DNA from: a virus
Lineage: Duplodnaviria; Caudoviricetes
Length of the DNA stretch: 64,000 nt
Virus record (IMG/VR): IMGVR_UViG_3300032245_000902
Coordinates: 26,916-90,915 of that record
Reading direction: 5' to 3' (one strand)
Shown: piece after piece, positions 30,807-35,873 of the stretch
How positions within the stretch are numbered: the stretch's first letter is position 1
How the letters are laid out: the number at the start of each line of letters is the position of its first letter
Program-made: the position numbers and the translations under genes
Notes under the pieces: generated by a model
The model's database searches: none
What the model saw: the letters and a program-made list of their open reading frames with translations, nothing else
Told to the model about the DNA's origin: nothing

Positions 30807-31382
30807 ATGAGAGGTGATTGGTGCTATTTTGGCAGGCATTTTTCGAAAGAAACCTGCCAAAAAATACTTGATTTAGGATTAAAAAAATCTTCTAAAGATG
30901 CTGTCTTGGGTGTTGATGGTAATACCCAAGACAATGATTGGCGAAGAAGTAAAGTTCGTTTTATTCAAGCAAATGATCCTGAATTTCAATTTCTTTTTGA
31001 TGAAATTTGGAAAATGGGTATGCAAGCCAACCGTGATTGGTTCAATTTTCATGTCACCAATTTGTCATTTATTCAACTAGCCGAATATGATTCTTCATAT
31101 CAAGGCGAATACAAAAAACACCACGATGTATTCTGGATTAACAACGATAAATACCATCGTAAGTTAACTTGTGTTATTCAATTGTCTGACCCCAATGATT
31201 ATGAAGGTGGTGATTTTGAGTTGTTTGATTTGACAGGTGGTCAATATCCAAATAAAGAAGATTTGCGCCAACAAGGTACAGCAATATTCATTCCTTCTTT
31301 CACTCCACATCAAGCACATCCAGTAACAAAAGGTACGAGATATTCTATTGCAGTTTGGTTTGAAGGTCCTAAATGGGTATAA
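30807..31382 (+). CDS. 2OG-Fe(II) oxygenase (prolyl hydroxylase/PKHD-like)
   Basis: HxD ('HHD'), 'RKLTCVIQLSDPNDYEGG', distal His and RxS in 'PHQAHPVTKGTRYSIAVW'. Confidence 0.9.
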   Translation: MRGDWCYFGRHFSKETCQKILDLGLKKSSKDAVLGVDGNTQDNDWRRSKVRFIQANDPEFQFLFDEIWKMGMQANRDWFNFHVTNLSFIQLAEYDSSYQGEYKKHHDVFWINNDKYHRKLTCVIQLSDPNDYEGGDFELFDLTGGQYPNKEDLRQQGTAIFIPSFTPHQAHPVTKGTRYSIAVWFEGPKWV

Positions 31383-31385
31383 AAT

Positions 31386-31946
31386 ATGAATGATTATGAG
31401 TTTGAAAAAGATTATTGGGGTGATTGTTGTAATACATTTGATGAGGACCAAAAGCATTATGTTTATGGCCGTTTGATGGGATTACATCGAGAACATTATT
31501 CATTTGATGTTTTTGGTAAATCAATTCTTGATATTGGTGGTGGTCCAACCTCTATGTTATTAAAAACTAAAAACCTTATAAAAGGTAAAGTGGTTGATCC
31601 AATTAAATATCCAAATTGGACAATGCTGCGTTATTTGGAAAAAAATATAGAAGTGAAAGTTGAACCGGGTGAAAATTTAAATGAGATTGATAATAGTTGG
31701 GATGAAGTTTGGATCTACAACTGTTTACAACATGCTGAAGATCCAGAAAAAATTATACATAAGGCTTTAAAATCTGGCAAAGTATTAAGATTTTTTGAAT
31801 GGATTGATGTGCCTGCACACGAAGGACATCCGCATGAACTTACAGAAGAAAATTTAAATAAATGGATTGGTGCAAGAGGTATGACTACAAGATTATCCGA
31901 ATCTGGATGTTATGGCAGAGCATATTATGGAGTATTCACACGATGA
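31386..31946 (+). CDS. Class I SAM-dependent methyltransferase
   Basis: 'ILDIGGGP' motif I and 'DEVWIYNCLQH..DP' post-II motif. Confidence 0.8.
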   Translation: MNDYEFEKDYWGDCCNTFDEDQKHYVYGRLMGLHREHYSFDVFGKSILDIGGGPTSMLLKTKNLIKGKVVDPIKYPNWTMLRYLEKNIEVKVEPGENLNEIDNSWDEVWIYNCLQHAEDPEKIIHKALKSGKVLRFFEWIDVPAHEGHPHELTEENLNKWIGARGMTTRLSESGCYGRAYYGVFTR

Positions 31947-33073
31947 GATTTCACATATTAGGATTACCACATACAGTATCTTCTAAAGAATATAATGCTT
32001 GTGCTTACACACAGAAGGTTGTTAAGTTTGCCAAAATGATGACTGATAGAGGCCACGAAGTAATACACTATGGTCATGAAGAATCTAATTTACAATGTAC
32101 AGAACATGTCACCGTTTTATCATCAGAAGATTGGAAAAAATCTTATGGTGATCACGATTGGCGTAAACACTTTTTTAAATTTAATACTGATGACCATGCA
32201 TATCAAACATTCTACAAAAATGCTATTGTAGAGGTTGGTAAAAGAAAACACAAAAACGATTTTATTCTTCCTTTTTGGGGTTCGGGTGTTCGACCGGTTT
32301 GCGATGCACATCCAGATTTAATTTGTGTTGAACCAGGAATTGGTTATGCTGGAGGACATTGGGCAAGATTTAAAATTTTTGAATCATATGCAATTTATCA
32401 TGCATATTATGGATTAGATTCTGTAGGCACTTGTAAACAAGATTGGTATGATGTGGTTATACCCAACTATTTTGATCCTGATGATTTTCAATATTCAGAA
32501 CAAAAAGAAGATTATTTTTTATTTTTAGGGCGAGTGTATGAAGGTAAAGGTGTAAACATTGCGGTGCAGGCCACAGAAGCAATTGGTGCCAAATTGATTA
32601 TTGCTGGTCAAAATAGTCTTACACAAATGGGATATAAAGAAATTCCATCTCATGTTACAGAAATTGGTTATGCTGATGTTGCAACAAGAAAACAATTGAT
32701 GTCTAAAGCTAAAGGTGCATTTGTGGCATCATTATACACCGAACCTTTTGGTGGTGTTCAAGTAGAAATGTTATTCTCTGGCACACCAACAATTACGACC
32801 GATTGGGGTTCTTTTACTGAAAATAACATTCATGGTATAACAGGTTATCGTTGTAGAACTTTTGAACAGTTTACTTGGGCAGCCAAAAATATTGATAAAA
32901 TCAAACCATCAAATTGTCGTAATTATGCTATGAACTTTAGTTTAAATAAAGTTGCAGAAATGTATGAAGAATATTTTAAATCTGTTTTAAATGTTTATAA
33001 TAAAAACGGTTGGTACGAAAAAAATAATGAAAGAAACAATTTAAATTGGTTATCAAAACATTACCCAACATAA
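31943..33073 (+). CDS. GT-B glycosyltransferase (GT4-like)
   Basis: Start at the ATGA overlap ([10 protein letters not shown]); '[12 protein letters not shown]', '[20 protein letters not shown]' (Ex7E). Confidence 0.88.
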
Positions 33074-33076
33074 ATA
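33069..33076 (+). promoter_or_regulatory. T4-type late promoter (CATAAATA)
   Basis: Late box upstream of the collagen fibre genes. Confidence 0.55.
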
Positions 33077-33113
33077 AAAGACAATAACAACAATAACAAG
33101 GGGAGAGTGAACC

Positions 33114-34499
33114 TTGGGAACCAATTCCAATTTCGTAGTTAAAAACGGATTAACCGTAAACACTACGCCAGTCATAAATTCATCAGGTGTATGGACAGGA
33201 CCTAGTACAGGATTAGTAGGTGCTACAGGCGCTACTGGTCCAACTGGTCCTACAGGAGCAACCGGTTCAACTGGACCTACAGGGTCAACTGGTTCTACCG
33301 GTCCTACAGGAGCCACAGGTTCAACAGGTCCTACTGGACCAACTGGTGCAACCGGCGCCACAGGTTCAACAGGTCCTACTGGACCAACTGGTGCTACCGG
33401 TTCAACCGGTCCTACTGGACCAACAGGAGCTACCGGTTCTACAGGCCCAACTGGTCCTACAGGAGCAACCGGTTCTACCGGTCCTACTGGTCCTACAGGA
33501 GCAACCGGTTCTACCGGTCCTACTGGTCCTACAGGAGCAACCGGTTCTACCGGTCCTACTGGACCAACCGGTGCAACAGGTTCGACTGGACCCACAGGTT
33601 CGACTGGCGCCACAGGCCCAACTGGTCCTACAGGAGCAACCGGTTCTACCGGTCCTACAGGAGCCACAGGTTTAACAGGTCCTACTGGACCCACAGGTCC
33701 TACTGGTCCTACAGGAGCAACCGGTTCAACAGGACCCACAGGCCCAACCGGTTCAACTGGTGCAACAGGACCTACTGGTCCTACTGGCGCAACAGGACCA
33801 ACAGGGCCAACTGGTGCAACCGGCGCCACAGGCTCAACAGGTTCTACTGGACCAACTGGACCGACCGGTGCAACAGGACCAACAGGACCAACTGGTGCAA
33901 CCGGCGCCACCGGTCCTACTGGTCCTACAGGAGCAACTGGTTCAACAGGACCAACTGGACCGACCGGTGCAACAGGACCTACTGGTCCTACTGGACCAAC
34001 AGGCGCAACTGGACCCTCAGGACCAACTGGTCCAACAGGACCGACTGGACCAACAGGAGGTTTTTCATCTGGTTCAAATGCTCAAGTAAACTCACTTGGT
34101 GTTAATACTGCTGCTTCTGGTACAGCTGGTGAAATTAGAGCCACCAATAATATTACTGCTTATTATTCTGATAAACGATTAAAAGAAAATATTGAATTAA
34201 TTCCAAATGCTATTGATTTGGTAAATCAAATTAGAGGGGTTTATTATACACAAAATAAATTTGCTGAACAATTTGGTTACAAAGATTACAAAAAACAAGT
34301 TGGTGTGATAGCACAAGAGGTTCAAAAAGTTTTACCTGAATCAGTAAAAATTGCTCCATTTGATATGGATAGAGAAGGTAATAGTAAGTCTGGTGAAAAC
34401 TATTTGACTGTTCAATATGAAAAATTGGTACCATTGTTAATCCAAGCAATTAAAGAACAACAAAGTGAGATTGATGAACTCCTGAAAAAAGTGGAGTAA
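33114..34499 (+). CDS. Collagen-like fibre with S74 chaperone (TTG start)
   Basis: GGGAG SD and TTG start; 'NFVVKNGL' N-terminus; about 94 in-register Gly-X-Y triplets, almost all GPT/GAT/GST; '[11 protein letters not shown]'. Confidence 0.88.
33210..34055 (+). repeat. Collagen-like 9-bp-period repeat (Gly-X-Thr)
   Basis: 846 bp of ggN-(c/g/t)cN-acN units. Confidence 0.95.
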
Positions 34500-34502
34500 C
34501 AA

Positions 34503-35873
34503 ATGTCCAATTCTAATTTTGTAGTTAAAAACGGTTTAAGTGTCAATACTGCAAGCATCATTGATTCTTCTGGTAATTGGACAGGTGCACCTTCAAACAA
34601 CCCAGGTTCAACAGGACCAAACGGAACAACAGGCAGCCAAGGAACTAACGGACCAAACGGACTGCAAGGTAGTCTTGGACCATCGGGCAACCAAGGCAAT
34701 ACTGGACCAACAGGACCTACAGGTGAAAGCCCAACAGGATCAAATGGTCCAACAGGACTTTCAGGATCACAAGGCACAAATGGACCAACCGGCGATATTG
34801 GAAGTTCTGGTACTAATGGACCAACAGGAACAACCGGCAGTCAAGGTTCTCTCGGACCTACTGGTCTAAGTCCTACTGGTGTTACTGGTCCAACAGGAAA
34901 TGCTGGAACATCAGGCACTTTAGGTGTGACTGGTCCAAACGGACCTCAAGGCAATTTAGGTCCAGCAGGAACAACCGGCGTAAACGGCATCACTGGAGCA
35001 TCAGGCCCAAGTCCTATTGGCCCAACAGGTAATACTGGTCCTACAGGTAGCAATGGTCCTACCGGTCCTACTGGTCCAAGTCCTACTGGTGTAACAGGTC
35101 CTACAGGTCCTACTGGACCTACAGGTGCAGATGGTTTATCTGGTGTTGGTGCAACCGGTTCAATAGGTCCTACCGGTACAACAGGAACTACAGGTAGCAA
35201 TGGTCCTACCGGTCCTACTGGTCCAAGTCCTACTGGTGTAACAGGTCCTACCGGTCCTCAAGGTTCTCTCGGTCCTACTGGTCCAAGTCCTACTGGTGTA
35301 ACAGGTCCTACAGGTCCTACTGGACCTACAGGTGCAGATGGTTTATCTGGTGTTGGTGCAACAGGCAGTGCAGGTCCTACAGGACCCACAGGACCTAATG
35401 GGCCAACTGGAGGAACAACAACAGCAGACGATTCAAACATCAATTCGTTGGGTGTTGGTGCAGCTGCAACAGGTACTGCGGGTGAAATTGTTGCAACAAA
35501 CAATATTACCGCATACTACTCCGATAAAAGATTAAAAGACAATATTCAACAAATTGAAAATGCTTTACAATTAGTAAATCAAATTTCAGGCGTTTTCTAT
35601 ACACAAAGTAAATTTGCAGAACAGTTTGGTTATACGGATTATCGTAAACAAGTTGGTGTTATTGCACAAGAAATACAAGCAATTATGCCTGAAGCGGTTG
35701 CTATCGCTCCGTTTGATATGAACAAAGAAGGTAACAGTAAGTCTGGTGAAAATTACTTAACTGTTCGTTACGAAAGATTGGTACCATTATTAATTGAGGC
35801 CATTAAAGAACGCCAGGTGCAAATAAATACTATTAAACAAAAACTGAAAGAAAAACATGGCAACCGTTACTAA
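34503..35873 (+). CDS. Second collagen-like fibre with S74 chaperone
   Basis: Paralogue of 33114 at both termini; interrupted Gly-X-Y with GPSPTG kinks and internal DNA duplications (about 35064-35155 vs 35271-35362). Confidence 0.88.

Follow-up and report, generated by a model that had tools for sequence, protein, structure and literature searches.

What do a glycosyltransferase, a methyltransferase and an oxygenase act upon when their genes stand among the structural genes of a tailed phage, directly ahead of two collagen-like fibres? The question is raised by a stretch of 64 kb (hereafter the window) comprising the 3′ part of a 90.9-kb viral contig in IMG/VR (record IMGVR_UViG_3300032245_000902). 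In the window five plus-strand genes fill the interval between a gene for a 1792-aa fibre and that for a gp13-like neck protein: a 2-oxoglutarate (2OG)-Fe(II) oxygenase (OXY), a small class I S-adenosylmethionine (SAM) methyltransferase (MT), a GT4-type glycosyltransferase (GT) and the collagen-like fibres colA and colB (Table 1). On balance we favour a reading in which colA and colB receive O-linked sugars on Thr, the sugars are methylated and, optionally, Pro is hydroxylated. That all three enzymes act as proposed is a stronger claim and one we regard as somewhat doubtful. Fibre modification is partly supported, and the support is comparative-genomic throughout.

The gene string and its collagen-like fibres

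The original prediction placed three linked enzyme genes directly upstream of two collagen-like fibre genes in the late structural region, and this arrangement stands: all five genes lie on one strand and are tightly coupled. OXY and MT are 3 bp apart, MT and GT overlap by 4 bp, 40 bp separate GT from colA and 3 bp separate colA from colB, while colB overlaps the gp13 gene by 17 bp. The start of GT is an ATG at 31943 that overlaps the stop of MT (ATGA), and homologues begin at the same Met. Gaps and overlaps as tight as these suggest that OXY, MT, GT, colA and colB are co-transcribed. The motif CATAAATA, which resembles a T4 late promoter, occurs ahead of both OXY and colA (Table 1); since it is not enriched in the window (4 matches against 7.1 expected), and only its placement is suggestive, we take it as a hint. 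A second motif, TATAAATA, matches the window twice, both times away from the cassette.

The first fibre, colA, contains a single uninterrupted run of 95 Gly-X-Y triplets (residues 33–317; nt 33210–34064). The run is as unbroken as had been claimed, its length a slight correction to the predicted figure of about 94, and the claim that Thr stands at nearly every Y position holds, with 92 of the 95 so occupied. The X position is Pro in 48 triplets, Ala in 26 and Ser in 18. A 32-aa N-terminal module precedes the run, which is followed by a short stem and then by the S74 intramolecular chaperone (nt 34167–34349); the Pfam matches are Collagen, at E 4.4e-43, and Peptidase_S74, at E 2.1e-14. In colB, 85 triplets are divided among nine blocks with two-residue breaks between them (nt 34605–35417), Thr occupies 40 of the 85 Y positions, and the S74 chaperone is found at nt 35520–35699. 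Lys is absent from the collagen parts of both proteins.

The S74 module is a C-terminal element that trimerises phage fibres and then cleaves itself off at a Ser-Asp...Lys motif. Both fibres have this domain (PF13884) at the C-terminus and above cut-off (54 and 56 bits versus 22), and in both the cleavage motif is present as YYSDKRLK, at residue 350 in colA and residue 338 in colB. The DNA of colA forms a 36/72-bp tandem array with matches of just 74–75%. An open reading frame (ORF) antisense to it (33053–33910, minus strand; 285 aa with Val-Gly-Pro repeats) was considered as a gene and rejected as a shadow of the colA repeat.

Families and catalytic motifs of the three enzymes

GT matches PF00534 (E 7.4e-14; 52.1 bits against a cut-off of 26.4) and PF13692 (43.5 against 27). 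An EX7E motif in the C-terminal domain is characteristic of GT4, or Glycos_transf_1, enzymes; in GT it is intact as EPFGGVQVE (residues 267–275), with E267 and E275 invariant in the alignment of homologues. We predict an enzyme of GT4 type, GT-B in fold and retaining in mechanism. Its best match in the PDB, 7fg9 (E 5.6e-16), is described as a cyanobacterial alpha-1,2-glucosyltransferase with uridine diphosphate (UDP)-glucose as donor (PMC9909042).

MT belongs to a very conserved family (phrog_3603, E 5.5e-92). Its best Pfam match, Methyltransf_11, reaches 18.2 bits and thus falls below the cut-off of 21.2, and against PDB sequences neither the single protein nor a profile gave anything below E 0.1. 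The glycine-rich motif I (D49-x-G51-x-G53-P54) is nevertheless intact, D49, G51, G53 and P54 being invariant, and as modelled (predicted local distance difference test, pLDDT, 91.2) MT is a class I SAM methyltransferase with a Rossmann-like fold. The SAM-bound neighbours returned by Foldseek – Coq5, RebM, AtmM, NodS and UbiG, at probability 1.00 and template-modelling (TM) scores of 0.55–0.67 – are small-molecule and sugar methyltransferases, with no DNA methylase among them.

OXY matches PF13640 (2OG-FeII_Oxy_3; E 2.6e-16, 60.8 bits against a cut-off of 27), and both its iron triad (H105, D107, H168) and the 2OG-binding Arg (R178) are invariant in an alignment of 27 sequences. A profile of 27 relatives finds PiuC as the best PDB match (2e-13), followed by the prolyl 4-hydroxylases 5c5t, 2jig and 3itq/5hv0 (1.6e-7 to 1.7e-5), PHD2 and P3H1; no paper on the function of PiuC was found in the open-access literature searched. 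Judged from its model (pLDDT 94.2), OXY folds like protein prolyl hydroxylases: all top Foldseek matches listed are PHD2, the Pseudomonas putida EF-Tu prolyl hydroxylase (PPHD) or the Dictyostelium PHD (TM 0.67–0.76), the highest of them at 0.73–0.76. For none of the three enzymes does an NCBIfam model attain its cut-off.

Linkage of the glycosyltransferase with Thr-rich collagen genes

Evidence that GT acts on the fibres comes from the neighbourhoods of its homologues. From IMG/VR we took the best 80 of 560 window-type relatives and the best 80 of 125 relatives of the type found in phage S-CBWM1, and from bacteria 80 of 88 relatives, with one genome per species. An ORF was called a true collagen when Gly occupied at most 15% of its X and Y positions, which shuts out Gly-rich (Gly-Gly-X, or GGX) proteins; the phage counts of 31 in 44 and 39 in 39 given below refer to collagen-like ORFs and were made without this filter.

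Of the 44 window-type GT loci flanked by 5 kb or more on each side, 31 have a collagen-like ORF, and in 23 it lies within 700 bp. For well-flanked loci of the S-CBWM1 type the figures are 39 of 39 within 3 kb and 30 of 39 within 700 bp. The linkage extends to bacteria, where 21 of 46 GT loci with flanks of at least 3 kb have a true collagen gene within 3 kb, mostly about 100 bp upstream; the organisms concerned belong to the Clostridia/Oscillospiraceae, Chloroflexota, Verrucomicrobiales, Saccharibacteria, Desulfosarcina and others. At one such locus, from a metagenome-assembled genome (MAG) of the Firmicutes (L364:6708–9131), a BclA-like protein of 390 aa with about 70 Gly-Pro-Thr or Gly-Ala-Thr triplets is followed, 111 bp on, by a GT 44% identical to that of the window. 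The pair sits among housekeeping genes and recurs in many Clostridia MAGs.

Among GenBank phages GT is restricted to S-CAM7, ACG-2014f and S-CBWM1, together with two faecal contigs (53 records). In each of the named phages a Thr-rich Gly-X-Y ORF precedes GT by no more than about 1 kb, and in S-CAM7 and S-CBWM1 it is the immediate neighbour; S-CBWM1 is not a kyanovirus, and its GT is 31% identical. A FastTree phylogeny of 126 dereplicated, classifiable GTs tells the same story: 86 are collagen-linked (an ORF within 3 kb), and every deep clade has such members. A further 41 of the 167 dereplicated loci had flanks too short to classify and were dropped, as, earlier, were matches with fewer than 300 aligned residues or with stops.

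Proximity was examined by comparing distance intervals. In bacteria a collagen ORF lies 0–2.5 kb from GT in 15 of 27 cases and 5–7.5 kb away in 1 of 27 (Fisher 4.6e-5), and for the S-CBWM1 type the corresponding figures are 10 of 11 and 0 of 11. Whole genomes point the same way. Pfam Collagen scores above cut-off in only one of 15 complete T4-like genomes that lack GT (14 kyanovirus genera and DLP_6), namely S-CAM9, as against nine of nine GT-bearing records (Fisher 7.6e-6, with shared ancestry not corrected); and where window-type GT contigs have no collagen gene nearby, all five tested have Pfam Collagen matches elsewhere. The original prediction had looked to co-occurrence of all three enzymes with such fibres across T4-like genomes; this is largely borne out for GT, and for OXY only in part, as described below.

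The collagens linked with GT are also distinctive in composition. Their median fraction of Thr at Y is 0.66 and 0.56, and 141 of 147 reach at least 0.4, whereas collagens at loci with the oxygenase only have a median of 0.24 and reach 0.4 in 5 of 15 cases. The baseline given in PMC8968730 is 31.6% for all bacteria and 48.3% for Gram-positives.

Across the loci compared, then, the GT family is recurrently linked with Thr-rich collagen genes in many independent lineages, two deep lineages of phages among them, and GT itself probably acts on collagen-like fibre proteins. More tentatively, and with slightly less than even confidence, we suggest that this GT4 branch is a dedicated Thr-O-glycosyltransferase of Gly-X-Thr collagen-like proteins in tailed phages and many bacterial phyla, to which phages have repeatedly added sugar methyltransferases, as neighbours or by fusion, and some lineages a collagen prolyl hydroxylase. 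Such a reading would take in the BclA-like spore-surface proteins of Clostridia.

One IMG/VR lineage (L016, L018 and L022–L032) deserves separate mention: directly after GT it carries giant collagen-like ORFs of 264–417 triplets, in which Thr takes up over half of the Y positions, and it has neither OXY nor MT.

Methyltransferases as partners of the glycosyltransferase

Gene neighbourhoods indicate that, in phages, MT is tied to GT. GT is present at 39 of 51 well-flanked MT loci (28 window-type, 11 S-CBWM1-type), within 300 bp at 29 of them and in both gene orders. The partnership is not restricted to MT: when all types are counted, a methyltransferase occurs within 300 bp of GT at 62 of 73 loci of the S-CBWM1 type, at 19 of 68 of the window type and at 4 of 60 in bacteria. 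There are, in addition, natural fusions of the two activities, two with a C-terminal Methyltransf_23 domain (L044:10001–11692 and L054:5931–7607) and one of FkbM type (Methyltransf_21; L019:5440–7218). Non-orthologous replacement and fusion of this sort suggest that GT and MT work on one product, which would most simply be a methylated sugar. We therefore lean towards MT acting on the same glycan as GT.

The oxygenase and the alternative explanations

A critical issue is the target of OXY, which is unsure because OXY is rare at loci that pair GT with collagen and because the copy in the window stands behind a fibre that is not collagen-like. What is clear is that close relatives of the oxygenase are recurrently linked with fibre genes. 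All nine IMG/VR loci whose identity is 41% or higher have a fibre ORF ending 9–41 bp upstream of OXY, and fibres homologous to the 1792-aa protein precede OXY in relatives. In a survey of the 54 of 59 OXY loci that tblastn re-found, 8 of the 27 in which GT is absent and the flanks suffice have a true collagen gene within 2.5 kb, in every case with Pro at X and in every case beside one of the closer homologues. The two best GenBank matches, S-PRM1 (49%) and S-CAM9 (48%), have the OXY orthologue about 1 kb behind an 1800-aa fibre with a stretch of 59 collagen triplets (Pro at X; Thr or Lys at Y), and S-CAM9 is the sole collagen-positive genome among the 15 GT-less T4-like controls. The original prediction cautioned that Pro in these fibres occupies X and not the Y position used by classical prolyl 4-hydroxylases (P4H). 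The caution can be softened, given that the P4H of Bacillus anthracis is reported to hydroxylate collagen peptides at prolines in X and also in Y (PMC8968730). Taking these data together, OXY may act on collagen Pro, a proposition to which we assign a little less than an even chance.

Several observations weigh against the proposal that all three enzymes serve the collagen fibres, and most of them lend themselves to one of two alternatives. The first, unlikely though deserving of serious attention, is that only GT and MT are directed at collagen, while OXY targets the 1792-aa fibre, another virion protein or a non-structural substrate. OXY is present at 13 of 80 window-type GT loci and at none of the 80 S-CBWM1-type or 80 bacterial loci; given its absence from most GT–collagen loci, GT does not need OXY. 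The fibres upstream of its nine closest homologues are of three different kinds (three window-type, three collagens with S74 tails and three Gly-rich), its distant relatives (at most 35% identity) mostly have no collagen link, and in the window it follows a fibre of the non-collagen kind. OXY paralogues are moreover spread over 259 phage records – 60 were listed at even steps, so that further close orthologues may exist – with many adjoining uvsW and cyanophages carrying many. Less easily reconciled with a target outside the collagens are the fold, which is that of a protein prolyl hydroxylase, the concentration of collagens with Pro at X beside the closer homologues, and their recurrence in S-PRM1 and S-CAM9. 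The claim that the enzymes modify the collagen fibres thus fares differently in its parts: the linkages of GT and MT support it, and the role of OXY stays unsure.

Distant OXY homologues (L201, L204, L222, L233, L237, L247) often stand behind Gly-rich, GGX-type fibre-like proteins that are not true collagens and that end in motifs such as GSGIVI(V/I)KY. In S-CAM9 (L403:3399–10417) and S-PRM1 (L404:1558–8558) the order is collagen fibre, small ORF and two 2OG oxygenases, of which the second is the OXY orthologue. Two hydroxylases beside a collagen that bears both Lys and Pro are a hint of Lys as well as Pro hydroxylation in these phages.

A broader alternative, which we consider decidedly improbable, is that the enzymes are auxiliary glycan-pathway genes concerned with the host surface, lipopolysaccharide or some other glycoconjugate, the collagen fibres being no substrate at all. 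A variable island occupies the position ahead of gp13, and in collagen-free cyanophages (S-SSM7, S-CAM3) it carries sugar genes – for the heptose pathway, epimerases and carbamoyltransferases – along with 2OG oxygenases. The nearest solved relatives of GT act on small molecules. On jumbo-type contigs, such as that of L078, GT is found inside a glycan island, in the company of a desaturase, an ATP-grasp enzyme, two further GTs and GalE, and its alphaproteobacterial and actinobacterial homologues (53–60% identity) lie among housekeeping genes with no link to collagen. Even in the window's own GT clade about 30% of loci have no collagen gene within 5–10 kb, and distance enrichment is weak (6 of 15 at 0–2.5 kb versus 4 of 15 at 5–7.5 kb), a contrast blunted by the fact that fibre modules hold several collagen genes. 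The counts, furthermore, include related sequences, and the Fisher values overstate independence. An assignment to glycan pathways would also accord with published readings, in which phage glycosyltransferases are usually taken for DNA-protection or host-surface genes, and those of cyanophages for agents of host-surface or DNA modification (PMC12801897, PMC10202952). It leaves unexplained, however, a collagen ORF within about 100 bp of GT in unrelated phages and in several bacterial phyla, the presence of collagen in nine of nine GT-bearing records and only one of 15 GT-less genomes, and the richness of GT-linked collagens in Thr at Y. Whether the enzymes occur independently of collagen genes in relatives, a point raised with the original prediction, receives a divided answer for GT: among the well-flanked window-type loci (from the best 80 of 560), 13 of 44 have no collagen gene and the other 31 do.

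Two of these islands may be described further. The one upstream of gp13 in S-SSM7 (L106), S-CAM3 (L104) and S-RIM44 (L105) is free of collagen; its genes are those of the heptose pathway and those for carbamoyltransferases, tryptophan halogenases, a cysteine dioxygenase and 2OG oxygenases. The one at L078:4000–17000, on a 164-kb contig estimated to be 46% complete, comprises a fatty-acid desaturase-like gene, an ATP-grasp enzyme, an MTS-type methyltransferase, a PF13640 oxygenase, two GTs besides the one considered here and a GalE-like epimerase; collagen genes are present elsewhere on this contig.

A third possibility is that OXY makes hydroxyproline from the Pro at X and that GT glycosylates hydroxyproline, not Thr, in the manner of Skp1 and plant cell-wall proteins. 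The Dictyostelium PHD-type prolyl hydroxylase, whose product is glycosylated, is among the top fold matches of OXY, and 48 of the 95 X positions in colA are Pro; but GT is linked with collagen in the absence of OXY at most loci, and the feature that GT-linked collagens have in common is Thr at Y, with Pro at X at a median of just 0.19–0.26. We consider this explanation very improbable.

The same three enzyme classes also occur in phage TET systems. DNA hypermodification, in which MT and a TET-like oxygenase would yield a hydroxylated base for GT to glycosylate, was a target that the original prediction had acknowledged, and for Rhizobium phage RL38J1 the candidate DNA-sugar genes named include a 7fg9-like GT (PMC13326640), but we reject it as extremely improbable: neither Tet_JBP for OXY nor any DNA-methylase Pfam for MT gave a match even with the E limit raised to 10 (very weak ones may be lost to HMMER filters), OXY folds like PHD2 and MT like small-molecule methyltransferases, the genes are placed in a late structural string, and in bacteria the GT family is linked with BclA-like genes.

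A proposed model for fibre maturation

We return to the reading that we prefer, in which the three enzyme genes and the fibre genes would form one late-expressed cassette for the production of post-translationally modified collagen-like fibres. The colA and colB chains would be made in the cytoplasm and there, before the triple helix closes, GT would place a hexose, possibly from UDP-glucose, on the hydroxyl of Thr at Y, with up to 92 such sites in each colA chain. We place modification ahead of helix closure because animal collagen chains are described as impossible to modify once trimeric (PMC8968730). MT would then O-methylate the Thr-linked sugar. OXY, as an optional addition in this lineage, would hydroxylate Pro at X (48 in colA) or act on the upstream fibre. 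Finally the S74 domain would trimerise the chains, set the register of the helix and cleave itself off at YYS|DKRLK, to leave in the case of colA a rod of about 80 nm (285 residues at 0.286 nm each) attached near the neck or baseplate.

Glycosylated Thr can stabilise collagen triple helices. The glycan would stabilise a helix that has no hydroxyproline at Y, and it would furnish the virion with a hydrated, protease-resistant coat that is adhesive or shielding.

Comparison with known systems

The closest proven precedent for Thr glycosylation of collagen repeats is the SgtA/BclA3 system of Clostridioides difficile. SgtA, encoded next to bclA3, adds beta-O-linked N-acetylglucosamine to Thr of Gly-Pro-Thr repeats (PMC7157674), and the two loci are alike in that a glycosyltransferase gene adjoins a collagen gene of this type. 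The enzymes differ, as far as their descriptions can be compared: SgtA is given as a GT-A domain with tetratricopeptide repeats that transfers the sugar in the beta configuration (PMC7157674), whereas the GT of the window is GT-B/GT4 (PF00534), lacks such repeats and is predicted to be retaining. The systems differ further in that the substrate in the window would be a phage fibre that ends in an S74 chaperone, and in that a methyltransferase and an oxygenase are attached.

A second parallel is BclA of B. anthracis, whose glycan contains methylated sugars. It belongs to the spore surface of a cell, where the proteins of the window are phage fibres. BclA is described as a Thr-rich collagen-like glycoprotein (PMC8968730); the match between the OXY profile and the P4H of the same organism is just E 1.7e-5. 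Mimivirus, according to the same source, encodes collagen together with hydroxylating and glycosylating enzymes, among them the collagen lysyl hydroxylase and glucosyltransferase L230 (PMC8968730). L230, however, acts on Lys and hydroxylysine, residues for which the Lys-free collagen parts of colA and colB offer no place, and the enzymes of the window are separate proteins of other families in a tailed phage.

Glycosylation of virion proteins in phages has its own precedent. In mycobacteriophages its targets, in work attributed to Freeman et al. in 2023, are reportedly capsid and tail proteins, and thus differ from the collagen fibres of the window, as does the phage group. That mycobacteriophage-encoded glycosyltransferases decorate virion proteins is documented (PMC11256854). 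For OXY the likeness to PHD2/EGLN1, PPHD and the Dictyostelium PHD lies in the double-stranded beta-helix (TM 0.73–0.76) and the H-x-D...H...R motif; identity to these and to PiuC/YbiX is 16–23%, and the substrates HIF, EF-Tu and Skp1 are unrelated to collagen. The cassette would join three known kinds of process, namely phage virion glycosylation, Thr glycosylation of the BclA type and collagen maturation as in giant viruses. In the open-access literature searched we found no paper that links glycosyltransferases of cyanophages or other tailed phages to collagen fibres.

The position of the fibres recalls T4, in which the gene for fibritin (wac) lies directly upstream of gp13. In both cases a trimeric fibre would be encoded ahead of gp13 and a C-terminal element nucleates trimerisation, although T4 fibritin is a coiled coil with a foldon while colA and colB combine a collagen helix with a self-cleaving S74 chaperone; the fibritin family has no match among the Pfam or PHROG results for the window proteins. 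The label of whiskers, given to the fibres by the original prediction, would follow from gene position only.

Implications

Should the proposal prove correct, many aquatic phages would carry glycan-coated and partly hydroxylated collagen fibres, a prokaryotic-virus counterpart of animal collagen maturation, and part of the sugar genes of aquatic phages that are counted as 'auxiliary metabolic' would be genes for virion maturation. The surface chemistry of abundant phages would then depend on glycans that cannot be read from fibre sequence, and adsorption, host range, stability, grazing and antibody recognition would hinge upon them. An enzyme family missing for the BclA-like glycoproteins of many bacteria would have been named. 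The cassette would also offer a small toolkit, expressible in bacteria and consisting of a hydroxylase, a glycosyltransferase, a methyltransferase and a self-trimerising collagen, for the production of modified recombinant collagens. The hypothesis is directly testable in the cultured phages S-CAM7, ACG-2014f and S-CBWM1, which carry the same GT near collagen genes.

Genomic setting and further features of the window

Pfam and PHROG matches reveal the gene order of a T4-like myovirus, in which baseplate and fibre genes are followed by gp13, gp14, gp15, the small and large terminase subunits, sheath, tube and portal. In GenBank the enzyme genes find their nearest relatives in Synechococcus phages. 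The best match of gp13, by contrast, comes from a Stenotrophomonas phage (48%), with cyanophages at 40% or less. In a megablast of 30000–37000 the only matches, at about 70%, are to the MT–GT part in ACG-2014f.

Table 1. Features of the cassette and its surroundings (positions in the window)
Feature	Position	Strand	Length, match or remark
Further S74-tailed fibre, upstream of the cassette	19528–20994		Peptidase_S74
colC, third and shorter collagen-like fibre protein	24292–25362	+	18 triplets
Repeat-rich fibre, directly upstream of OXY	25399–30777	+	1792 aa; PF18454 Mtd_N N-terminal domain, E 3.4e-11
CATAAATA, T4-late-promoter-like motif	30765–30772	+	35 bp ahead of OXY start; motif match, weak hint
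OXY, 2OG-Fe(II) oxygenase of prolyl-hydroxylase (PHD/P4H/PiuC) type	30807–31382	+	191 aa; PF13640
MT, small class I SAM methyltransferase	31386–31946	+	186 aa; phrog_3603
GT, GT4-type (Glycos_transf_1) glycosyltransferase	31943–33073	+	376 aa; PF00534
CATAAATA, T4-late-promoter-like motif	33069–33076	+	38 bp ahead of colA start; motif match, weak hint
colA, collagen-like fibre	33114–34499	+	461 aa; Pfam Collagen and Peptidase_S74
colB, collagen-like fibre	34503–35873	+	456 aa; triplet blocks and S74 domain
gp13-like neck protein (head-tail adaptor)	35857–36630	+	phrog_211, E 1.3e-42

The 1792-aa fibre is not collagen-like and contains many near-repeats, NTAITAVNNFA and ANGANGLAAGAFN being examples of their motifs. 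At its C-terminus some 80 residues are similar to the C-terminal domain of colC, which has Thr at Y in 11 of its triplets and is another possible substrate of the cassette enzymes. Between the genes for the small and large terminase subunits lies an ORF of 240 aa (38960–39682, plus strand) that has no Pfam or PHROG match; weak leads from a protein atlas, to Glycos_transf_2 (31% of one cluster, score 0.93) and DUF707, indicate that it could be a further glycosyltransferase.

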